Of a stretch of 64,000 bases of DNA, positions 2,456 to 55,789 are shown piece after piece. Under the pieces are notes generated by a model, which was given only the letters and a program-made list of their open reading frames with translations, was not told the DNA's origin and made no database searches. The position numbers were made by a program, and so were the translations under genes. The stretch's first letter is position 1, and each line of letters begins with the position of its first letter. Source of the DNA: Isurus oxyrinchus (taxonomy: Eukaryota); assembly GCA_026770705.1 (NCBI GenBank), contig JANJGN010000018.1, positions 78,120,001-78,184,000 on the forward strand, given 5' to 3'.

Positions 2456-2541
2456 TGTGATAATGAGGGCCCTCAGGAGGAGGCAGAGATAGATTATCCA
2501 TTCACCTCTTATGATTGAAAATGATTGTGTATGTTTCAAAG

Positions 2542-4366
2542 AAAAAAACTGCGGTTGCTGGAAATCCAAAACAAAAATAAAAATACCTGGAAAAACTCAG
2601 CAGGTCTGACAAGCATCTGCGGAGGGGAATGCAGTTAACGTTTCGAGTCCATATGACTCTTCAACAGAACTAAGGAAAAATAGAAGAGAGGTGAAACATA
2701 AGTTGGTTTAAGTAGAGCTGGATAGAGGGCCGGTGATAGGTGGAGATTGCCAAAAGATGTCATAGACAAAAGGACAAAGAGGTGTTGATGGTGGTGATAT
2801 TAGCTAAGAAATGTGCTAATAGGTGACATTAAGGGTAGAAAGCAGGACAAGCAAGGTACAGATAGCCCAAGTGGAGCTGGGGTGGGGAGAAGGGATCGAA
2901 ATAGGCTAAAAGGTAGAGATAAAACAATGGATGGAAATATATTTAAAAATAATGGAAATAGGTGGGAAAAGAAAAATCTATATAAATTATTGGAAAAAAG
3001 GGGGATCGGAAAGGGGGTGGGGACGGAGGAGAGAGTTCATGATCTAAAGTTGTTGAACTCAATATTCAGTCCAGAAGCTATAAGGTGCCTAGTCAGCAGA
3101 TGAGGTGCTGTTTCTCCAGTTTGTGTTGAGCTTCACTGGAACATTGCAGCAGACCAAGGACGGACATGTGGGCATGAGAGCAGGGTGGAGTGTTGAAATG
3201 GCAAGCGACAGGGAGGTCTGGGTCATGCTTGCGGACAGACTGAAGGTGTTCCGCAAAGCGGTCACCCAGTCTGCGTTTGCTCTCTCCAATGTAGAGGAAA
3301 TGACATTGGGAGCAGCGAATGCAGTAGACTAAATTGAGGGAAGTGCAAGTGAAATGCTGCTTCACTTGAAAGGAGTGTTTGAGCCCTTGGATGGTGAGGA
3401 GAGGGGAAGTAAAGGGGCAGGTGTTGCACCTTCTGCGTTTGCATGGGACGGTGCTGTGGGAGGGGGTTGATGTGTAGGGGGTGATGGAGGAGTGGACCAG
3501 GGTGTCCCGGAGGGAACGTTCCCTGCGGAATGCTGCTGGGGGGGTGAAGGGAGGATGTGTTTGACGGTGGCATCATGATGGAGTTGGCGGAAATGGTGGA
3601 GGATGATCCTTTGAATGCAGAGGCTGATGGGGTGATAAGTGAGGACAAGGGGGACCCTATCATGGTTCTGGGAGGGAGAGGAAGGTGTGAGGGCAGATGT
3701 GCGGGAGATGGGCCAGACACAGTTGAGGGCCCTGTCAACCACTGGGTGGAAAACCTCAGTTAAGGAAGAAGGAGGACATGTCAGAGGAACTGTTTTGGAA
3801 AGTGGCATCATCAGAACAGATACGACGGAGGCGAAGGAACTAAGAGAATGGGATGGAGTCCTTATAGAAAGCAGGGTGTGAGGAGCTGTAGTCAAGGTAG
3901 CTGTGGGAGTCAGGAGGCTTGTAATGAATATTGGTGGACAGCCTGTCACCAGAAATTAAGACAGAGAGGTCAAGGAAGGGAAGGGAAGTGTTAGAGATGG
4001 ACCATGTGAAAATGATGGAGGGGTGGAAATTGGAAGCAAAGTTGATAAATTTTTCCAGGTCCAGGCGAGAGCATGAAGCAGCACCGAAGTAGTCATTGAT
4101 ATACCGGAGAAAGAGTTGTGGGAGGGGGCCGGAGTAGGACTGGAACAAGGAATGTCCCACCTACCCCATAAAGAGACAGGCACAACTGGGGCCCATGCGG
4201 GTACCCATAGCCACACCTTTTATTTGGAGGAAGTGAGAGGAGTTTAAAGAGAAATTGTTCAGTAAGAACACAAGTTCAGCCAGAGGGAGGAGAGTAGTGG
4301 TGGATGGGGATTGTTCGGGCCTCTTGTTCGAGGAAGAAGCAGAGAGCCCTCAGACCATCCCAATGG
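2542..4366 (-). mobile_element. 5'-truncated Penelope-like element in a CIP2A intron
   Basis: Frameshifted RT (LRYINDYF) and GIY-YIG (LVYCIRCSQCHFLYIGE) fragments collinear with the 51400 ORF; tail with hammerhead motif at 2633-2671. Confidence 0.92.
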
Positions 4367-9364: not shown

Positions 9365-10012
9365 GTATTTTGAATATACCATGAGATAGATCATTTTAAA
9401 AGTTACTGCCTTCTCTTAATTCAGTCTTTTAAGTCAACTAATCTTTTTATTTGCTGCATTATATAAATTAGTTAATTCAATTTATAAGAATGCAATTTTT
9501 TTTAGTACAAAGTAGTATTGTCAATGGTAGACCAACACTCTAGGCTGTAAAATTCTGGTTATGCGGATCTTCAAAATGTGGCAGAGTAAGGTACAGTTGG
9601 ACTTTTTTATCATACTAATTTCTATTATATATAATGTAAAAAAGCTGTTATCAAATGCAAAGTGTCAGTAGACTGGAAATCTATTTTGCAGCTGCGATTC
9701 TTTTATTCTATGGAAATGAAGGATAGTAATCAATTATGGTTAAATATTTTCGAGTACTTTGTGATTAAACAAAATTGCATGCGGTTTGTCAATAACTTGG
9801 TGAAAACTGCACTGCTTCTGAGTTATCCAGTCATTATGGCTGTAAGAATGTTAGAAACTACAGTAAATCATATAGTTCCTTTTCATTTTGCTAATTTTGA
9901 AATTCTCATCAGGGGAATCTCAAATCAACTGTTGTTCACTGTTCTTCCTAGTTATTAACCGAACCAATTCAAACACATGCATCTTAATTGGCCAATTGTT
10001 CTGGGGTTTTGG

Positions 10013-12318
10013 GGTCTCCAATGTAGAGGAGGCCACATTGGGAGCAGCGAATGCAGTAGATCAAATTGAAGGAGGTGCAAGTGAAGTGCTGATTCACCTG
10101 AAAGGAATGTTTGGACCCTTGGGCAGTGAGAAGGGAGGAGGGTAAAGGGGCAGGTGTTATACCTTCTGCAACTGCATGGGAAGGTGCCGTGGGAGGAGGA
10201 TGAGGTGCTGGGGTGATGGAAGAGTGGACCAGGGTGTCCCGGAGAGAACGATCCCTACGGAATGCCGACCGGGAAGGTGAGGGGGAGATGTGTTTGGTGG
10301 TGGCATCATGCTGGAGTTGGTGGAGGACGATCCTTTGAATGTGGAGGCTGGTGAGGTGAAAAGTGAGGACAAGGGGTCCTTATCATTGTTCTGGGAGGGA
10401 GAGGAAGGTGTGAGGGCAGAGGCATGGGAGATGGGTCAGACGTGGTTGAGGGCCCTGTCAACAACAGGGGTGGGAACCCTCGGTTAAAGAAGAAGGAAGA
10501 CATGTCAGAAGTGCTAGTTTGGAAAGTGGCATCATCGGAACAGATGCAACGGAGGTGAAGGAACTGAAAGAATGGGATGCAGTCCTTACAGGAAGCAGGG
10601 TGTGAGGAGCTGTAGTCGAGGTAGCTGTGGGTGTCGGTGGGATTGTAGTGAATATTGGTGGACAGTCTATCACCAGAAATTGAGGCAGAGAGGTCAAGGA
10701 AGGGAAGGGAAGTGTCGGAGATGGACCATGTGAAGATGATAGAGGGGTGGCAATTGGAAGCAAAATTGATAAAAAATTTTTCCAGGTCCAGATGAGAGCA
10801 TGAAGCAGCACCGAAACAGTCATCGATGAACCAAAAAAAGAGTTGTGGGAGGGGGCCTGAGTAGGACTGGAACAAGGAATGTTCCACATACCCCATAAAG
10901 AGACAGGTGTAACTGGGGCCCATGTGCCCCAGCCATACCTTTTTATTTGGAGGAAGTGAGTCAAGTTTAAGGAGAAATTGTTCAGTGAGAACACAAGTTC
11001 AGCCAGACGGAGGAGAGTGGTGGTGGGATAGGGGTTGTTCGGGCCTCTGTTCAAGGAAGAAGCGGAGCGCCCTTAGACCATCCTGATGGGGGTTGGAAGT
11101 ATAGAGGGATTAGAAAGGAGGCGGTTAGGGCCAGGGGATTTTGTCCTTTGCCCCCACCTATTGCTGGCCTTCTATCCAGCTTCACCTGCTCCAACACCCT
11201 TAAACAGTATAAATTGCATCACATTTTTACTTCGGTTTAACTTTGAAGAAGAGTCATACAGACACAAAACGTTAACTCTGTTTTTCTCTCTGCAAATGCC
11301 GTTAGACCTGTTGAATTTTTCCAGCATTTTCTGTTTTTGTTTCAGATTTCCAGCATCCGCAGCATTTTCCTTTTATCTTCCTGGAAAATATTCAGTTGGC
11401 ATTCTAGTATGCTTTTCTATCTCACAAAGGTTACAAATCCTAATATGGTTCCAATTAAAACTGGCTCAACTCAAAACTCCAGACCAATTAAAATGCACAT
11501 GTTTGAATTGATAAGGTTAATAACTAGGAAGAACAGTGAACAACAGTTGATGTGAGAGATTCGTCTCCTGATGAAATGGCAAGCAACAAGTAGGTCTGGA
11601 TCTCACTCGCCATTTCAACACACTGGAGGAACAGCAACTCATCTTCTGATTAGGCATCTTACAGCCTTCTGGACTTAACACTTGAGTTTAACAACTTCAG
11701 ACCATGAGCTCTCTCCTCTATCCCCACCCCCTTCTTTACCCCTTTTTAATTTTTATTTTTATCCACTTTTTAATTTTTTTATTTTCATTTTTATTCATTT
11801 ATACAATGTTTTATCCCCACCTTTTATCCTATTTTCGATCTTTTATCCCACCACCCCTCCACTCCACAAGGGCCATCTGTTACTTGTTCTTTTCAGGGTG
11901 CTTACCCATGTCCCTGCTGTTATCACATTCTGCTTTCTTACCTTAATGCCACTATCAGCACCTCATTTAGCCCTTACCAGTACCATTAACACCCACTTTG
12001 TCCTTTTTGTTCATGACATCTTTGTCAATCTCTCCTTTGCCCCTACCTATCACCAGCCTTCTATCCAGCTTCACCTGCTCCACCCACCCTGTCCTCTTGT
12101 TCATGACATCTTTGTCAATCTCTCCTTTGCCCCCACCTATCACTGGCCTTCTATCCAGCTTCACCTGCTCCACCCCACATAAACAGTATAAATTGCATCA
12201 CATTTTTGTTTCTCTTTCGCTCTGAAGAAGAGTCTTATGGACTCGGAATGTTAACTCTGTTTTTCTCACCACAGATTCAGTTAGACCTGAGATTTTCCAG
12301 CATTTTATGTATTTGTTG
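10013..12318. mobile_element. Rearranged Penelope-like element (RT on -, tails on +)
   Basis: 10013-11110 minus-strand RT/linker (MGPSYTCLFM, WFIDD); plus-strand tails at about 11140-11378 and 11606-12318. Confidence 0.88.
12007..12178 (+). repeat. Tandem duplication, 90-bp period, inside a PLE tail
   Basis: TTGTTCATGACATCTTTGTCAATCTCTCC...TCACCTGCTCCACCC begins at both 12007 and 12097. Confidence 0.9.
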
Positions 12319-27325: not shown

Positions 27326-27830
27326 CTTGAGTTCAACAATTTCAGATCACGAACTCTCTCCTCCATCCCTGCCCTCTTTCTGATCCCCCTTTTTCCAATA
27401 ATTTAAAACAATTTTTTTACAAATATATTTTTCTTTTCCCTCCTATTTTAAAATTTATTTCGATCTATTGTTTCATCTCCACCTCTTAGCCCATTTTGAT
27501 CCCTTTCCCCCACCCCACCCCCACTAGGGCCATCTGCCACTTGCTCGTCCTGCTTTCTACCCTTAATGTCCCCATTAGCACATCCTTTGGATAATATCAC
27601 CACCATCAACACCCTTTTATCTATGACATCTTTGGCAGTCTCTTCTTGGCCTCCACCTATCAGTAGCCCCCTATAGATCTCTACCTGTCCCACCCACCAG
27701 CTTATATTTCATCTAATTTCTATATGTCTTAGTTCTGATGAAAGGTATTATGGACTCGAAACGTCAGCTGTATCCCTCTCCGCAGATGCTGTTAGACCTG
27801 CTGTGTTTTTCCAGGTATTTTTGTTTTTGT
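27325..27830 (+). mobile_element. PLE pseudo-LTR fragment
   Basis: Starts TTGAGTTCAACAATTTCAGATCA and ends in the shared GACCTGCTG..TTTTCCAG tail. Confidence 0.85.
27731..27769 (+). ncRNA. Hammerhead motif with canonical core in a PLE tail
   Basis: AGTT-CTGATGA-aaggtattatggactc-GAAAC-GTC-AGCT; exact CUGAUGA, GAAA and GUC, stem II weakened. Confidence 0.6.
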
Positions 27831-27968: not shown

Positions 27969-28195
27969 AAAAGTAAACTGCAGATGCTGGAAATCCAAAC
28001 AAAAACAGAGACAGAAATACCTGGAAAAACTCAGCAGGTCTGGCAGCATCGGCAGAGAAGAGCACAGTTAACGTTTCAAGTTCTCATGACCCTTCAACAG
28101 AACTAGTTGTTGAAGGGTCATGAGGACTCGAAACGTCAGCTGTGCTCTTCTCTATCAATGCTGCCAGACCTGCTGAGTTTTTCCAGATATTTCTG
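27969..28195. mobile_element. Palindromic mini-PLE insertion (two inverted hammerhead-bearing tails)
   Basis: About 95-bp arms centred on AACTAGTT (28101-28108); 12-bp TSD TCTCCTGTTTCT at 27957-27968 and 28196-28207; interrupts a CR1 ORF1 remnant. Confidence 0.88.
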
Positions 28196-28629
28196 TCTCC
28201 TGTTTCTGTACTCACTTGCACGTGGGACTGGGAGTAATCCTAAGATTACTGTTTTAGAGGTCCTGCTTTTCAATTTCCTTCCTAGCTCCCTAAAATCTGC
28301 TTTCAGGACTTTCCTTGTTGTCCTTTCTTTTGAGGAGCTGGGTTCAAATGCAGTACATTCTGATAGAATGAAAGTCTTTCCTCAAGCTGCCTGTTGCAAT
28401 GCTCATACCCAAAATGAATTTAGATAGCCTACCCAGCTCCTAGCCGGGCTCTACAACTCAAAATTGCTCACTCTCTGGCCCAGAGTGGTCAAGGATGGCA
28501 GCTTAAGAAAGTACAATTATTTTACATGGAAGACCTGTTTTACAAAACATAGGTGCTTTAGTTCTATCAAAGGGTAAAGTATAGTTTATCAAATTTTATT
28601 CTGTAAGCACATAATTATTGACAGCTTAC

Positions 28630-36300: not shown

Positions 36301-36354
36301 CACAACCCAATTCACAGAAAATTCATTTTCAATGGAAAGTAACATATCTCTGAC

Positions 36355-36681
36355 CAGCCACTTCTAGCAAGATGTTCAGTTCACTTTTCCCCTCTGATGT
36401 ACTGATGTAACATTGGTACTCTCCTTCATCAGCCTTGTTAACTCCTGTAAGCTGAAGGGATGCATTTCCTTTCATTATCTCATCGATAAAAAGCTTTGTT
36501 CTCCCTTTGTAGTTTTGATCTTGTTTGAATAACTGATCTGTTTCTCGATAAAAGCTGTGAACCACAATGGTCTTCTGGGCCAGATGGCGCATCCAGTGAA
36601 GAACTATATCAGACAACTGGGTTGGTCGAAATGTACAAGGCAAAACCATGTCCTTGGAAATGATACCTATGCTGCTCCCAT
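36355..36681 (-). CDS. HHLA2: B7-family IgV domain exon 1 (HHLA2/B7-H7-like)
   Basis: ttttag|AT GGG...G|gtcaga, 327 nt, phase 1-1. B7/butyrophilin IgV motifs VLPCTF, LHW, VHSFY...DQ...YKGRTKLF, GNASLQL, DEGEYQC. Confidence 0.9.
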
Positions 36682-36933
36682 CTAAAAGGAAATAGAACAA
36701 AATTAGTCTTTGCTGGTAAACAAAAGTGTTTGAAAGTTACAATCCAATTTCCAAACTTCAAAAACCAACCAATATTACTTCACCATAAACTGAAGGATCA
36801 ATAGCAATGATTATGCACAGAATAGACCATTATTTTGGGGCTGGGGTGGTTGGGGGCTCGGTGGGGCGGGGGGTGGGGTGGTGGTCTGATGGACTAGACT
36901 GCTATGCAACATTATTGTGATAATAGAAACATT

Positions 36934-46240: not shown

Positions 46241-46291
46241 TTAGCGCCATTAACATGGGTGCTTTTTAGAGGAAAATGAATGGACACTGAT

Positions 46292-49200
46292 CACAGAATC
46301 ACAGTGCAGAAGAGGCCCTTCGGCTCATCGAGTCTGCACCGACATGTGAGAAACACCTGGCCTACCTACCTAATCCCATTTACCAGCACTTGGCCCATAG
46401 CCTTGAATGTTATGACGTGCCAAGTGCTCATCCAGGTACTTTTTAAAGGATGTGAGGCAACCAGCCTCCACCACCTTCCCAGGCAGTGCATTCCAGACCG
46501 TCACCACCCTCTGGGTAAAAAAGTTTTTCCTCACATCCCCCTTAAACCTCCTGCCCCTCACCTTGAACTTATGCCCCTTTGTGACTGACCCTTCAACTAA
46601 GTGGAACAGCTGCTCCCTATCCACCCTGTCCAAGCCCCTCATAATCTTGTATACCTCGATCAGGTCGCTCCTCAGTCTTCTCTGCTCCAAAGAAAACAAC
46701 TCAAGTCTTTCCAACCTCTCTTCATAACTTAAATGTTTCATCCCAGACAACATCCTGGTGAATTTCCTCTGCACCCCCTCCAGTGCAATCACATCCTTCC
46801 TATAATGTGACGACCAGAACTGCACACAATAGTCCAGCTGTGGCCTCACCTAGGTTCTATACAACTGCAACATGACCTCCCTACTTTTGTAATCTATGCC
46901 TCGATTGATAAAGGCAAGTGTCCCATATGCAATTTTCACCACCCTACTAACATGCTCCTCTGCCTTCAGAGATCTATGGACCCACACGCCAAGGTCCCAT
47001 TGTTCCTCAGAACTTCCTAGTGCCATGCTGTTCATTGAATACTTCCTTGTCAAATTACTCCTTCTAAAGTGTATCACCTCACACTTTTCAGGGTTAAATT
47101 CCATCTGCCACTTATCTGCCCATTTGACCATCCTGTCTATATCTTCCTGTAGCCCAAGACACTCAACCTCACTGTTAACCACCCAGCCTAACTTTGTGTC
47201 ATCCGCAAACTTACTAATCCTACCCCCCACATAGTCAGCTATGTCATTTATATAAATGACAAATAATAGGGGACCCAGCACAGATCCCTGTGGTATGCCA
47301 CTGGACAATGGCTTCCAGTCACTAAAGCATCCCTCTGCCTCCTACAACTAAGCCAATTTTGAATGCACCTCATCAAATTACCCTGTATCCCATGTGCACT
47401 TGCCTTCTTTATAAGTTTCCCATGTGGGACCTTGTCAAAGGCTTTGATGAAATCCATATAAACGACATCAACTGCACTACCCTCATCTACACAACTGGTC
47501 ACCTCCTCAAAAAATTCAATCAAATTTGTAAGGCATGACCCCTCTCTGACAAAGCCTTGCTGACTATCCCTGATCAAACCTTGCCTCTCCAAGTGGAGAT
47601 AGATACTCTCTTTCAGAACTTTCTCCAATAGTTTCCCTACCACTGATGTGAGACTCACTGGCCTGTAGTTCCCTGGCTTATCTGTACAACCCTTCTTAAA
47701 TAGCGGAACCACATTAGCTGTTCTCCAGTCCTCTGGTACCTCCGCCGTGGCCAGAGAGGAATTAAAAATTTGAGTCAGAGCCCCTGCGATCTCCTCCCTT
47801 GCCTCCCTCAGCAGTCTGGGACACAAATCATCCAGACCTGGAGATTTGTCCACTTTTAAGCCTGCCAACACCTCCAATTCCTTGTCACTCCCTATGTCAA
47901 TTTGCTTAAGAACCTCGCAGTCTCCCCAAGTTCCATACCTTTATCCTCATTCTCTTGGGTGAAGCCAGATGTGAGGTATTCATTCAACACACTAGTGATG
48001 TCCTCTGGCTTCACCCATGGATTGCCCCCTTGGTCCCTTACTCTTTCCCTGGTTATCCTCTTCCCATTGATATACTTATAGAATATCTTGGGATTTTCCC
48101 TAATTTTACCAGCCAGAGCTTTCTCATTTCCCCACTTTGCTCTCCTAATTGCTTTCTTAAGCTCCACCCTGCACTGTCTGTACTCCACAAATGGCTCTGC
48201 TGATTTGCTTCCCTTGTAGATGCTAAAAGCCTCTCTTTTCCTTCTCATCATAACCTGAATATCTCTGGTCATCCATGGTTCTCTGGGCTTGTTACTCCTT
48301 CCTATCACCCTAGAGGGAATATGTTTAGCCTGTACCCTCCCCATTTCCTTTTTGAACACCCCCCACTATTCCTCTGTAGATTTCCCCACAAGTAACTGTT
48401 CCCAGTCTACCTTGGCCAGACCCTGCCTTATTTTACTAAAATCCACTCTTCCCCAATCCAAAACATCTTTTTTGCAACTTATTGATTTCTTTGTCCAAAA
48501 CAAACTTAAACTGTACTATGTTGTGGTGGCTATCGCTAAAATGTTCCCCCACCACCACCTCAGCCACCTGTCCGGCTTCATTCCCCAGAATTAGGTCCAG
48601 CAATGCACCATCCCTTGTTGGACCCTCTACATATTGACCTAAAAAGTTTTCCTGTACACATTTCAAGAAATCCACTCCATCAAAGCCCTTAACATTATGT
48701 CTATCCCAATTAATGTTGGGAATGTTGAAATCACCTAATATAATTACCCTATTGTTATTCTTTTTACGCACCTCCACAAATTGTGCACATATTTGGTCCT
48801 CAATTTCCTGCTGCCTATCTGAGGGTCTATAATAAACACCTAATAATGTGGTTGTCCCTTTTTTATTCCTAAGCTCTACCCACAAATCTTCATTCAATGC
48901 CCCCTCCAAGATATCATCTCTCCTTACTGCATTAACTGACTCCTTAACTAATAATGCCATGCCTCCTCTTCTTTTACCCCCTCCCCTGTCTCGCCTGAAG
49001 ATTTTATATCCCGGAATGTTGAGCTGCCAATCCTGCCCTTCCCTCAAGCACTTCTCAGCGATGGCTACTATATCACAATTCCACATGTCAATCCTCAATC
49101 TTAACTCATCCGTTTTACCTGTAATACTCCTGGTATTAAAGTAGAGGCCACCCAGCCTTGTCTTACTCCCTTGAAGCTTATTGCAGCAGTACTCCCTCTG

Positions 49201-49650
49201 ACTTGATTGTTTTACTGTATTATAATGTGTCCCTATTCTGCTAACATTCTGTGTACCCTCCCCTGCTGAATTAGTTTAAACTCCTCCCAACAGCACTAGG
49301 AAACCTGCCCGCAAGGATGTTATTCCCACTCTGGTTCAGATGTAGATTGTCCCACTTGTACAGGTCCCACCTTCCCCAGAAATTGTCCCAGTGATCCAGG
49401 AATCTAAAACCCTTCCTCCTGCACCAACTCTTAAGACACGTATTCATCTGTGTTATTCTCCTACTTCTGAGCTTGCTAGCATGTGGCACTGGTAGTAATC
49501 CAGAGATTACAAACCGAGAGGTCTTGCTTTTTGGTCCACTGCCTAACTGTCTGAATCTTTGATGCAAGACCTCATCCCTCTTTCAACCTATGTCATTGGT
49601 ACCAACATATACCATGACCTCTGCCTTATCACCCTCCCCCTTCAGGATTC
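46292..49650 (-). mobile_element. Long CR1 LINE: ORF1 esterase end plus disrupted ORF2 (APE + RT)
   Basis: ORF1 VISGLLP...DNLHLN (SGNH-type); APE GDFN, DLIL, SHHN; [32 protein letters not shown]; several stops and frameshifts. Confidence 0.95.
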
Positions 49651-50595: not shown

Positions 50596-51223
50596 AATAT
50601 ACACCTGTTTCTCCAGCCTGAACAATAGGGAGAATTCCTAAGGAAATTTCTGGAGGCTGTTGTTAGTTATGTTGTGCTGCGAGTTCTCTGATGACAATTT
50701 ATTTAGTGACAGGCTGGGCAATCGATATTAAGAAGGTATTAAGAACGCAAACTGGAGGAACAACACCTCATCTTCCGACTAGGCACCTTACAGCCTTCCG
50801 GTCTGAATATTGAGTTCAACAACTTTAGGTCATGAGCTCCCTCCCCCATCCCCACTCCCTTTCTGTTTCCCCCTTTTTCCCTTTTTTTTCCCTATAAATT
50901 ATATAGATTTTTCTTTTCCCACCTATTTCCATTATTTTTAAATATTTTAAAATCTTTTATGCTCCCCCCACCCCCACTAGAGCTGTACCTTGAGTGCCCT
51001 ACCATCCATTCTTAATTAGCACATTCGTTTAGATAATATCACCAACTTTAACTTTAACACCTATGTGTTCTTTTGTACCATTGTCACTGACATCTTTTGA
51101 TGATCTGCTTCTATCACTGCTTGTTTGTCTACACAACCACCTCTCTCTCTCCCTATCTCTCCGCCCCCCACACACACACCTTAAACCAGCTTATATTTCA
51201 ACTCTTTCTTGGACTCGAAATCA

Positions 51224-51262
51224 AGTTCTGTCGAAGGGTCATGAGGACTTGAAACGTCAACT
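51224..51262 (+). ncRNA. Minimal type I hammerhead ribozyme motif in the 5' pseudo-LTR
   Basis: AGTT-CTGTCGA-A-GGGTC-atgag-GACTT-GAAAC-GTC-AACT: stems I and II pair, palindromic ACGT in place of stem III; core has A6U. Confidence 0.65.
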
Positions 51263-51399
51263 CTTTTCTTCTCCGCCGATGCTGCCAGACCTGCTGAGTT
51301 TTTCCAGGTAATTCTGTTTTTGTTTTGGATTTCCAGCATCCGCAGTTTTTTTTTTGTTTTTATCTCTGTGTTTAATTGACTACCACTGCTCTTCAAGAA

Positions 51400-54099
51400 A
51401 TGCCTACCTCCTTGAAGAAGTTCTGTTCCTCTCTGCGACAAGATTTCCGTATCTCTCTGTTGCCTTGTTCACCTTCTTTGCTTTCCATTTCCCTCCTGGT
51501 GTTTGACAAGGTGTTTACTAAAACCCGCTTTCACAGCCATATCTCCTTTCTCAGTGACTGTCTCCGTCTCCGACTTACCCCACGTGGATTTCAACTGAAA
51601 TTCCACCCCTCATCTTTCGAACCCACCCAGGATTACCGGTATCTCCGGGACATAAAACGTTTCTCAGACTGCTGTTCCCGTCACATTCTGAAATCCACAC
51701 TCAGTGCCATGCGCCGCCATATGAACACACTCGACCTCTTCCTCCAGCAGCACCGCCGTACCCTTTTTCAAAGCTGCGCGTGCCCCCAGTTTCATTTTAT
51801 CCTTCGGCTCATCCGAAGTCTCAACAAGAAACTTTTTCTCTTTCTCTCAACTGCTAAGGAATGCAAGCTCCAACAACTCATCGACACCAACACCCATCTA
51901 GGACCCTCCACCCCAGCTTGTCCCTCCGTCCCCACCCCATCTTCCAATCCCAGCCCCAGCCGTGTATTCACTATACCCCCTGACCTTCCCCTCTCCGATG
52001 CTGAACGTTCAGTGCTCAGCAAAGGACTTAGTTTCATACCCTTACGCCCTCACCTCAATGAATTTCGGGCTCGGCATGATACTGAACTCTTCTTTCGCCG
52101 TCTTCGTCTCCGGGCTCACTTCTTCGGGCAGGAGTCCTCTCCCAGTTCAATGGATCCTTTTACCCATCTCCAATATTCTCCCTCCACCTGGACCCCTCCC
52201 TCTGGATTCTTACCTTCTCTTGATCTTTTCATTGAGAACTGTCGGCGCGACATTAGTCGTCTCAATTTCTCTGCTCCTCTCACCCATTCGAACCTGTCTC
52301 TCTCTGAACTTACTGCACTCCATTCTCTCAGGTCCAACCCTGACATTGTCATCAAACCCGCTGACAAGGGTGGTGCTGTTGTTGTCTGGCGCACTGACCT
52401 CTACCTCGCGGAGGCTGAGCGTCAACTCGCAGACACTTCCTCCTACCTCTCCCTGGACCATGACCCCACCACTGAACATCAAGCCATTGTTTCCAGGACT
52501 GTCACTGACCTCATCTCCTCTGGGGATCTCCCTCCCACAGCTTCCAACCTGATAGTCGCCCAACCTCGGACGGCCCGCTTCTATCTCCTACCCAAAATCC
52601 ACAAACAGAACTGCCCCGGTAGACCGATTGTCTCAGCTTGCTCCTGCCCCACAGAACTCATCTCTCGTTATCTTGACTCCCTTCTCTCTCCCCTTGTCCA
52701 GTCCCTTCCCACCTACATCCGTGATTCCTCTGACACCTTACGTCACATCAACAATTTCCAGTTCCCTGGCTCCAACCGCTTCCTCTTCACCATGGACGTC
52801 CAATCCCTCTACACCTCCATCCCCCACCAGGATGGTCCAAGGGCCCTTAGCTTCTTCCTCGAACAGAGGCCCAAACAATCCCCATCCACCACTACTCTCC
52901 TCCGTCTGGCTGAACTTGTTCTCACGTTGAACAATTTCTACTTCAACTCCTCTCACTTTCTCCAAATAAAAGGTGTGGCTATGGGTACCCGCATGGGCCC
53001 CAGCTATGCCTGTCTCTTTATGGGGTATGTGGAACATTCTTTGTTGCAGTCCTACTCCGGCCCCCTTCCACAACTTTTTCTCCAGTACATCGATGATTAC
53101 TTCGGTGCTGCTTCATGCTCTCGTCGGGACTTGGAAAAATTTATTAATTTTGCTTCCAATCTCCACCCCTCCATCATTTTCACGTGGTCCATCTCTGACA
53201 CTTCCCTTCCCTTCCTTGACCTCTCTGTCTCAATCTCTGGTGATAGACTGTCCACCAATATCCACTACAAACCCACCGACTCCCACAGCTACCTCGACTA
53301 CATCTCCTCACACCCCGCTTCCTGTAAGGACTCCATCCCATTCTCCCAGTTCCTTCGCCTTCGTCGCATCTGTTCCGATGATGCTACCTTCAAAAACGGT
53401 TCCTCTGACATGTCCTCCTTCTTCCTTAACCGAGGTTTTCCACCCACGGTCGTTGACAGGGCCCTCAACCGTGTCCAGCCCATCTCCCGCGCATCCGCCC
53501 TCACGCCTTCTCCTCCCTCCCAGAAACATGACAGGGTCCCCCTTGTCCTCACTTATCACCCCACCAGCCTCTGCATTCAAAGGATCATCCTCCGCCATTT
53601 CCGCCAACTCCAGCATGATGCCACCACCAAACACATCTTCCCTTCACCCCCCTTATCGGCATTCCGTAGGGATCGCTCCCTCCGGGACACCCTGGTCCAC
53701 TCCTCCATCACCCCCTACTCCTCAACCCCCTCCTATGGCACCACCCCATGCCCATGCAAAAGATGTAACACCTGCCCCTTCACTTCCTCTCTCCTCACCG
53801 TCCAAGGGCCCAAACATTCCTTTCAAGTGAAGCAGCATTTCACTTGCATTTCCCCCAACTTAGTCTACTGCATTCGTTGCTCTCAATGTGGTCTCCTCTA
53901 CATTGGAGAGACCAAACGTAAACTGGGCGACCGCTTTGCAGAACACCTGCAGTCTGTCCGCAAGAATGACCCAAACCTCCCTGTCGCTTGCCATTTTAAC
54001 ACTCCACCCTGCTCTCTTGCCCACATGTCTGTCCTTGGCTTGCTGCATTGTTCCAGTGAAGCCCAACGCAAACTGGAGGAACAACACCTCATCTTCTGA
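51400..54099 (+). CDS. Penelope-like reverse transcriptase / GIY-YIG endonuclease (premature stop 19 aa before the ancestral end)
   Basis: First ATG at 51400. RT motifs KPADKG, LPKIHK..PGRPIVS, MDVQSLYTSIP, GVAMG..MGPSYA, YIDD; Cys linker CPCKRCNTC; LVYCIRCSQCGLLYIGET. Confidence 0.93.
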   Translation: MPTSLKKFCSSLRQDFRISLLPCSPSLLSISLLVFDKVFTKTRFHSHISFLSDCLRLRLTPRGFQLKFHPSSFEPTQDYRYLRDIKRFSDCCSRHILKSTLSAMRRHMNTLDLFLQQHRRTLFQSCACPQFHFILRLIRSLNKKLFLFLSTAKECKLQQLIDTNTHLGPSTPACPSVPTPSSNPSPSRVFTIPPDLPLSDAERSVLSKGLSFIPLRPHLNEFRARHDTELFFRRLRLRAHFFGQESSPSSMDPFTHLQYSPSTWTPPSGFLPSLDLFIENCRRDISRLNFSAPLTHSNLSLSELTALHSLRSNPDIVIKPADKGGAVVVWRTDLYLAEAERQLADTSSYLSLDHDPTTEHQAIVSRTVTDLISSGDLPPTASNLIVAQPRTARFYLLPKIHKQNCPGRPIVSACSCPTELISRYLDSLLSPLVQSLPTYIRDSSDTLRHINNFQFPGSNRFLFTMDVQSLYTSIPHQDGPRALSFFLEQRPKQSPSTTTLLRLAELVLTLNNFYFNSSHFLQIKGVAMGTRMGPSYACLFMGYVEHSLLQSYSGPLPQLFLQYIDDYFGAASCSRRDLEKFINFASNLHPSIIFTWSISDTSLPFLDLSVSISGDRLSTNIHYKPTDSHSYLDYISSHPASCKDSIPFSQFLRLRRICSDDATFKNGSSDMSSFFLNRGFPPTVVDRALNRVQPISRASALTPSPPSQKHDRVPLVLTYHPTSLCIQRIILRHFRQLQHDATTKHIFPSPPLSAFRRDRSLRDTLVHSSITPYSSTPSYGTTPCPCKRCNTCPFTSSLLTVQGPKHSFQVKQHFTCISPNLVYCIRCSQCGLLYIGETKRKLGDRFAEHLQSVRKNDPNLPVACHFNTPPCSLAHMSVLGLLHCSSEAQRKLEEQHLIF

Positions 54100-54544
54100 C
54101 TAGGCATCTTACAGCCTTCCGGTCTGAATATTGAGTTCAACAACTTTAGGTCATGAGCTCCCTCCCCCATCCCCACCCCCTTTCTGTTTCCCCCTTTTTC
54201 CCTTTTTTTTCCCTATAAATTATATAGATTTTTCTTTTCCCACCTATTTCCATTATTTTTAAATATTTTAAAATCTTTTATGCTCCCCCCACCCCCACTA
54301 GAGCTGTACCTTGAGTGCCCTACCATCCATTCTTAATTAGCACATTCGTTTAGATAATATCACCAACTTTAACTTTAACACCTATGTGTTCTTTTGTACC
54401 ATTGTCGCTGACATCTTTTGATGATCTGCTTCTATCACTGCTTGTTTGTCTACACAACCACCTCTCTCTCTCCCTATCTCTCCGCCCCACACACACACAC
54501 CTTAAACCAGCTTATATTTCAACTCTTTCTTGGACTCGAAATCA

Positions 54545-54583
54545 AGTTCTGTCGAAGGGTCATGAGGACTCGAAACGTCAACT
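54545..54583 (+). ncRNA. Minimal type I hammerhead ribozyme motif in the 3' pseudo-LTR
   Basis: AGTT-CTGTCGA-A-GGGTC-atgag-GACTC-GAAAC-GTC-AACT. Confidence 0.68.
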
Positions 54584-55596
54584 CTTTTCTTCTCCGCCGA
54601 TGCTGCCAGACCTGCTGAGTTTTTCCAGGTAATTCTGTTTTTGTTTTTGATATTAAGAAGGTCCCTGGATTGATCCCTGAACTGTATTAAATTTTCTTAT
54701 CTCAGCCAGAGTGACAGAGGGAATGCTAAATAAGTCAGTTTTTCCAGATTAGTAAGGAACAAAAGCATTTTTGCTACCCAGGTAGATTCAGAAATCATGC
54801 ATCTGTGGGCATCAATGGACCTAATCAGGCTTGGCAAAATAGCTGCCGAGGGCACACAGTAATACTGGCCACTGACAAGTGCAGGGCACAACTCCTACTT
54901 TCCTGCAGTTCTGAAGAACAGTCGTATTCAACTTATCTCCAGTATACACAGTACTTTGCTCTTATTACAGGAGAAATCTCTGCCAGTGAAACCTCACTGA
55001 ATCAAGTGAGAAGAGGTGTGTTGTGAACGGCCGCATTAAATCAAAGTCCAGTACTAAAGATTAAAACTGAACACAAATTTTAACTTGCTTACAGATTTTG
55101 TAACATTTAAAATGAATTTACTTACATTTTCTAAGCTTCTCTCAGTCCTATTTAGCCTTGCATCATGTTGGCCACTACTCACTGAAATTTAACATTATCG
55201 TTTCAGAAGACATGTAATGAAACTGCGTGTCAAACAAAAATTTAAGGTGGAGTTTGTTAATGATCAATTTCCTTCCAGAAATGCCGTTTTACGTGAATAA
55301 GGTGTGGTTAACAGTCATAACCAGGAAAACCTGTGCTGCAGCATTCTGCATGATATCACTTGATCAGACAAGGCATCAAAATCTCAACTTGTGCAGATCG
55401 ATGGTCTACTCGACGGTGGATCTGGTTGCATAGCTCGTATTGTAGCGCTCTACAACATCGGCCTGAGGGCTGCTCACCAATGTCATCAGCCAAAAACAAT
55501 GGCGTCAGTCTTCTAAATATTCATTTGGAAGAAATTTCTGTTTATCCAGGGCTGGATGTCAGATAACCAGTTAGATAATAAACAAGTTCTGTACTT

Positions 55597-55789
55597 GAAA
55601 ACAGAAAATGCTGGAAAAACTCAGCAGGTCTGGCAGCATCTGTGGAGAGAGAAACAGAGTTGACCTTTCAGGTCCACTCTTCTTCTCTCTGTTTTTCTCT
55701 CTCCACAAATGCTGCCAGACCTGCTGAGTTTTTCCAGCATTTTCTGTTTCCATTTCAGCAACCGCAGTATTTTGATTTTATTTATTTTA
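55597..55789. mobile_element. Palindromic mini-PLE tail insertion
   Basis: About 60-bp inverted arms; imperfect 13-bp TSD AAGTTCTGTACTT (55584-55596) / AAGTTCTGCACGT (55790-55802). Confidence 0.8.

Follow-up and report, generated by a model that had tools for sequence, protein, structure and literature searches.

Does a Penelope-like element (PLE) need the hammerhead ribozymes in its repeats to cut, when one of the conserved core bases has been replaced? The question is raised by a 64,000-nucleotide stretch of the Isurus oxyrinchus genome (contig JANJGN010000018.1, positions 78,120,001 to 78,184,000, forward strand; hereafter the window), in which a PLE at 50744-54648 carries, in each of its two pseudo-long terminal repeats (pLTRs), a hammerhead motif with U instead of A at position 6 (A6U). 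We found that U6 is fixed in this lineage, that its subfamilies follow one another in a clear order, and that the 5' ends of its copies pile up at the first base of stem I, with no excess at the predicted cut site. We consider it probable that an abundant PLE lineage fixed A6U and kept transposing, likely by copying mostly uncut RNA, with a U6 ribozyme that is likely weakened and a fold and remaining core that are likely under selection. Cutting is likely to be slow or not needed for jumping.

As an earlier note on this DNA had proposed, each pLTR holds one minimal type I hammerhead, AGUU-CUGUCGA-A-GGGUC/GACUC-GAAA-CGUC-AACU. The two lie 3321 nt apart (C3 at 51228 and 54549, C17 at 51258 and 54579), and by their coordinates they enclose the whole open reading frame (ORF).

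51224..51262, + strand: 5' hammerhead, with U6 at 51231, an extra A after A9, a predicted cut after 51258 and a private C11.1U at 51250
54545..54583, + strand: 3' hammerhead, with U6 at 54552, a palindromic ACGU stem III without a loop and a predicted cut after 54579

Both motifs have a 5-bp stem II, a loopless ACGU stem III, AGUU/AACU as stem I and the extra A after A9, and the G10.1-C11.1 pair is present as well (G-U in the 5' copy, through its private C-to-U change), which together is the structure of a minimal type I PLE hammerhead. Measured against the canonical core CUGANGA/GAAA/UH, the only departure is the U at position 6 in both. The U6 copies at 2633-2671(-), 28066-28104(-), 33174, 51228 and 54549 and the A6 copies at 27735, 12222 and 45927 were also confirmed. 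An Rfam scan returned no hammerhead among 19 matches at E<=5, as is expected for a motif without a stem III loop.

That A6U is a trait of a subfamily and not decay, as the earlier note supposed, is strongly supported. In the 4.98 Gb genome, a 33-letter exact motif pattern with positions 6-7 left free had 75,564 exact matches, of which 73,809 (97.7%) carry U6 across several successive subfamilies; the reversed control of the pattern had 0 matches, so the abundance of the motif is not due to chance. Positions 6-7 of the first 100 matches listed read UC in 82 cases, UU in 17 and CU in 1 (counted by eye). There were 1,755 copies without U6, and among the first 100 of these listed 78 had CU and 7 had A6. 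An older pattern with a GAGUC stem II matched 4,005 times, with 59 U6 and 34 A6 among the first 100 listed. By nhmmer there were 194 hits in 1.464 Mb of blocks chosen without regard to the element plus the window, and the 108 hits with a parsable full motif read UC (37), UU (35), AA (15), AU (14), CU (3) and others (4).

Arranging 248 de-duplicated motifs gives a series that runs from A6A7 through A6U7, U6U7 with GAGUC, U6U7 with GGGUC, and an AUGAG loop with C at H17, to U6C7. Mean divergence along it drops from 0.068 to about 0.01; part of the set had been selected by exact patterns, and this biases divergence downwards. The same ladder, A6 before U6 before U6C7, comes out of a tree of 50 copies that was computed from ORF DNA with the motif left out; only 6 of its 45 inner branches are starred. 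Its longest end branches belong to five old A6 copies (0.057-0.076), while those of the youngest U6C7 copies range from 0 to 0.011. One A6 copy within the youngest group is likely a back-mutation. Because the ladder extends down to U6C7 copies of zero divergence, the lineage kept transposing to the present with U6, and decay by independent mutation is ruled out by this ladder together with the U6 count genome-wide.

Several other forms were seen in the same set. The CU copies that dominate the listed non-U6 matches form a C6U7 side branch (L031-L060, C1), likely of more than 1,000 copies, which parallels the natural A6C variant. Three identical motifs stand in tandem about 3350 bp apart (L013-L015, G000:C1:462207-468932), and an inverted pair has zero divergence (L022-L023); both may stem from local duplication or from activity in the very recent past. 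A further A6 hammerhead family (L212, L196, L211, L235, L125) has an AGGUC/GACCU stem II with a 3-nt loop and the same tail, with compensatory changes between the families. The change of loop II to AUGAG also made an upstream AUG in frame with the main ORF (window 51241-51297); this frame closes after 18 codons in the family and sooner in the 5' copy, because of the change at 51250.

To see whether templates were cut, we placed the starts of 262 de-duplicated tail-anchored copies, taken from the random blocks and from the top of three tail-search listings (30, 30 and 40 places), with 14 excluded. The 5' edge of stem I (positions -38 to -32 relative to the cut) was the start of 25/115 young, 11/57 middle and 17/76 old copies, an excess over the stretch in between with p of 4e-8, 4e-5 and 3e-3, respectively. 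Starts at the cut itself (-2 to +3) were at background (3/115, 1/57 and 5/76; p 0.66-0.73). Genome-wide break patterns, which require three non-native letters before a given base, agree with this: apparent 5' breaks at the first base of stem I numbered 2,999 (in U6C7 copies only, with a stricter filter), and those at the cut site numbered 230, no excess over the 202 at a control 17 nt upstream. A second control (+8) had 950 breaks, but a variant with a 3-base deletion accounts for 75 of the first 100 listed, which leaves roughly 240. Inspection of 30 cut-site loci showed 20 inversion junctions, 6 small deletions and 4 direct truncations. The preferred start of genomic copies corresponds to position 51224 of the window.

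For the old A6 families, the cut-site pattern matched 592 times, dominated by another junction 3-4 bases before the cut, and at most 8 of 100 listed matches fit a cut start. In many old tails (L325, L232, L219) this junction, 3-4 bases ahead of the cut, leads into a GC-rich end that recurs from copy to copy; it looks as though a different mobile element targets the palindrome of stem III for insertion or picks it up.

Since starts pile up at the edge of the uncut motif and none are in excess at the cut, the templates appear to have been mostly uncut, in U6 copies and, with less power, in A6 copies. The earlier note's proposal that cutting at the two positions would free an RNA of unit length that can circularise is therefore not supported, and changes at position 6 lower activity in published mutagenesis. 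An A6C hammerhead has low but detectable activity that improves with Mn2+ (PMC3088659, PMC7151607), and when a type III hammerhead was scanned with a full set of mutants, every single mutant in the CUGA region was of low activity (PMC9901934).

The element in which these motifs sit is a young, recently inserted PLE of Neptune/Nematis type, a clade placement to which the Cys linker between its reverse transcriptase (RT) and endonuclease (EN) points. Its other parts are as follows (TSD, target-site duplication; UTR, untranslated region).

50724..50737, + strand: left TSD, 14 bp, identical to 54649-54662 and followed by 6 bases repeating part of the target
50744..51326, + strand: 5' pLTR, a 5'-truncated tandem copy (ORF end, 3' UTR, hammerhead, tail) with 98.97% identity to the 3' repeat
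51327..51365, + strand: long-tail extension, reaching the second recurrent 3' end of family insertions (end coordinate approximate)
51400..54156, + strand: single ORF with RT (DKG at aa 322, IDD at aa 564), a C-x-C-x2-C-x2-C linker at aa 784-792 and a GIY-YIG endonuclease
54066..54648, + strand: 3' pLTR, ending at the short tail
54649..54662, + strand: right TSD, 14 bp

The pLTRs are 583-bp direct repeats with 7 substitutions between them. The final ~85 bases of the ORF (54066-54156) lie inside the 3' pLTR, and the entire ORF is still between the two hammerheads. Pfam matches RVT_1 at aa 407-571 (E 1.6e-6) and GIY-YIG at aa 821-855 (E 4e-4), both slightly below the curated cut-offs; 854 homologues at E<=1e-20 have the same domains, and the best named ones come from Chiloscyllium (68% identical across 67% of the query). 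The single ORF with RT and C-terminal GIY-YIG, the partial-tandem pLTR, the tail and the inverted 5' copies in the family are those of an EN+ PLE, and the Cys motif agrees with the CX2-5CxxC Zn-finger-like linker by which Neptune/Nematis elements are defined (PMC8557442). The copy itself is slightly decayed, given a premature TGA at 54097-54099, where the 5' repeat has CGA, and the private C11.1U in the 5' motif. Insertions of the family have clear 12-16 bp TSDs, TSDs also flank head-to-head insertions, and the TSD offsets cluster at about 9-21 and about 50-58 bases behind the tail anchor, which indicates two tail lengths.

Other copies are present in the window. Older truncated copies of the same element lie at 2539-4360 (-) and 10008-11114 (-), with 82% and 84% identity, the first with U6 and a GAGUC stem II. 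At 28001-28196, a head-to-head fold-back of two U6 motif-plus-tail copies turns at the stem I 5' edge and has a 12-bp TSD; Rfam gives it a below-threshold match as a microRNA-like hairpin. An inverted tail pair from an older family, with most of the hammerhead gone, occupies 55598-55785. Apart from these, the window holds a fragmented LINE with APE endonuclease and RT domains (46280-49582, -) and, at 36332-36736 (-), what is likely a host exon, an open frame that encodes an immunoglobulin V-set domain.

The simplest reading of the start pile-up in genomic copies is that the 5' terminus of the element's RNA lies on that base or directly beside it, so that the hammerhead would form the 5' end of the RNA; the base meant is the first of stem I. 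Older subfamilies read TCAGTT or TTAGTT at the preferred start base, which we take to be initiator-like. Reverse transcription that starts in the upstream tail would run off its template at this point and yield the ~105-145 bp and head-to-head copies, and priming in the downstream tail would yield long ones. Any cleavage still taking place, for which a dimer and possibly the ORF protein would be required, would take ~35 nt off the front of the RNA; its effect would be to dampen expression, not to prepare the template. This run-off scheme fits the two tail lengths and the 12-16 bp TSDs here and what is known of a PLE from anole, in which RT starts internally at two sites, RNA with a dead ribozyme inserts normally in vitro, uncut RNA is the dominant template and cleavage is protein-assisted (PMC11167929).

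Selection on the motif after A6U is suggested by where it changed. Between the earliest U6 subfamily and the youngest, the core and stems differ at 1 of 31 positions, where an A-U pair became G-U with pairing kept. The free positions changed at 4 of 7 (N7, two bases in loop II and H17; Fisher p 0.002 for the contrast) and the flank columns at 22 of 104 (p 0.026). Subfamily 5, with no more than 2 usable copies, gave no comparison with the silent sites of the ORF.

A number of points weigh against the interpretation we prefer. In the conservation and covariation check called for in the earlier note, the core and stems change less than flanks and free positions, with one pairing-preserving change after A6U, but not significantly less than ORF four-fold sites (22/186 changed; 3.7 changes expected, 1 seen, p 0.10). 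An overlapping promoter or a protein-binding DNA or RNA sequence could account for the constraint. The change of H17 from U to C after A6U (GUU to GUC) is possibly a compensation for working catalysis, and the low activity of U6 would be an extrapolation from A6C and one type III ribozyme. Cut-site excess is missing in A6 families as well (the 5/76 above), and its absence therefore does not separate U6 from A6. Inverted junctions make up 37 of the 62 copies whose starts lie between -40 and -30; only 10 are direct copies with a TSD, and the remaining 15 are unclassified. Of the first 100 edge matches listed, 60 start with letters found at inverted junctions, and microhomology may sharpen the peak. 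Finally, the RNA start is read from DNA, and the AG at the start base follows a pyrimidine tract and could, by analogy, be a splice acceptor. In D. virilis an intron ends at helix I (PMC4209133, PMC2377424). No shared upstream exon is visible in truncated copies here, and the 14 joints listed for four contig sets have no GT..AG ends, with two joints ending at 51224. The same four sets show no alternative letter at >=10% at position 51231. These sets come from 23 sequencing runs that match the stretch, all of them assembled contigs and most only guessed to be RNA; such contigs show no ends, strand or level and were not used for cleavage, splicing or expression.

A possibility that we regard as unlikely is that the ribozyme has been dead since A6U, and that the motif persists only because of an overlap with a promoter, a transcript start or a site bound by protein, or because there has not yet been time for its loss. 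The comparison with ORF silent sites would allow it, the C6U7 side branch also spread, and RNA-seq from anole has no reads ending at the cut site (PMC11167929). What speaks for a selected fold instead is that the changes in the motif fall exactly on the positions that are free in a hammerhead, and that the one stem change keeps pairing; a promoter constraint at the DNA level would not predict changes confined to those positions.

With no more confidence, and only as a tentative extension of the uncut-template reading, we can imagine that CUGUNGA is a working, protein-assisted slow core and that the PLE hammerhead is a self-decapping brake at the 5' end of the messenger RNA rather than a device for processing templates or making circles, tuned down by A6U (and then by GUU to GUC) before expansion to about 100,000 copies.

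We find it somewhat harder to believe that the U6 hammerhead is a working natural variant whose motifs dimerise through ACGU and cut twice, so that a 3321-nt RNA is ligated into a circle that templates more-than-unit copies. The core, stems and palindrome were kept after A6U and GUU became GUC, the element is 1.18 units long with a seamless junction, identical tandem copies such as L013-L015 exist, protein can assist cleavage in anole as noted above, and a religated circle leaves no end at the cut site. However, linear cut RNA would also serve as template and no excess of ends is seen, and the dominant short product contains the whole uncut motif. The published position-6 mutants argue against it too, and even canonical minimal motifs cleave poorly as dimers (PMC4209133). 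The predicted ACGU duplex is worth only -1.7 kcal/mol, and the native stem II has a predicted probability of 0.02-0.06 with flanks included, in a single-strand folding that cannot represent a double hammerhead. Seamless long copies would also be expected from tandem read-through or from strand transfer via the repeated hammerhead-tail segment. Unlike the non-coding unit of retrozymes and similar circular RNAs, the unit here encodes RT and EN.

The earlier note had also pointed to a second half-site just 5' of the core, which is indeed present and occurs in both repeats.

51212..51220, + strand: upstream half-site, 5' copy, GACUCGAAA, a late addition in the lineage
54533..54541, + strand: upstream half-site, 3' copy, GACUCGAAA

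It is not an old conserved feature. Older subfamilies have no half-site, and it arose stepwise, GACUCGAAC being followed by GACUCGAAA; in the ORF tree, copies with GAACUC (end branches 0.011-0.031) precede those with GAAAUC. It would also lie upstream of the presumed RNA start. That the upstream GACUCGAAAUC half-site is a second functional strand, forming a permuted core or decoy stem II and cutting at -35, is highly improbable: the youngest copies carry it, and GAAAUC followed by AAGUU would put a cut beside the observed pile-up, but its late stepwise origin, a predicted pairing probability of 0.00 with the stem II 5' strand and the pile-up in middle and old subfamilies that have no half-site, which means that it is not needed for the pile-up, largely refute such a role.

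Much of this architecture is already known, namely hammerheads in both pLTRs, dimer dependence, the circle model, inverted copies and tails. The minimal hammerheads of metazoan PLEs, including fish Xena, Poseidon and Neptune (Cervera and de la Pena 2014, PMC4209133), likewise have one motif per flanking repeat ~3 kb apart, a 4-bp stem I, an extra nucleotide between 9 and 10.1, G10.1-C11.1 and a palindromic 15.2-16.2 without loop 3, and occur mostly as solo copies genome-wide; the unit-length circle model was proposed in the same paper. They differ in having CUGANGA where we see CUGUNGA: the core variant reported there is U3-A8, and here U6 is fixed in the copies counted above. The A6C hammerhead of phage Bcep176 (Perreault 2011, PMC3088659; Naghdi 2020, PMC7151607) also combines a naturally occurring pyrimidine at position 6 with an otherwise intact core, but it has C instead of U and is a monomeric ribozyme at a single phage locus. 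PAc, the Poseidon element of Anolis carolinensis (Frangieh 2024, PMC11167929), resembles our element in that its two internal RT starts match the short and long tails and in that both DNA strands are nicked and extended. It belongs to the Poseidon clade without the Cys linker and has a canonical core and an ORF that starts inside the hammerhead, whereas the ATG here is 142 nt behind the predicted cut. EN+ Neptune/Nematis PLEs (Craig 2021, PMC8557442) share the RT, the Cys-rich linker, the C-terminal GIY-YIG, the partial tandem pLTR, inverted 5'-truncated copies and an optional 30-40 bp tail; by comparison with those, the TSDs in our family are clear.

A natural U6 core in a PLE hammerhead appears to be a new variant. 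None was found in the literature searched, outside which lies Lunse et al. 2017 on dimeric PLE hammerheads, a possible source of core variants. A term search of the available part of PMC7151607 did not find 'A6U', and the one of two Cervera supplement files consulted has no shark row and 3 occurrences of 'CUGU', of which the two seen lie outside the core.

The function of PLE hammerheads has been termed unclear (PMC8557442). The lineage described here is a dated natural experiment, with A6 and U6 versions of one motif in an ordered series that ends in copies of zero divergence, and this allows the importance of cleavage rate for transposition to be tested with short synthetic RNAs. If U6 proves able to cleave, the core consensus of natural hammerheads becomes wider, and searches with the CUGANGA descriptor overlook 73,000 motifs or more in a single genome. 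If it proves unable, an active PLE lineage has kept the fold without catalysis. In addition, the fixed start at the first base of stem I points to the 5' end of the element RNA and to the origin of short and head-to-head PLE copies.

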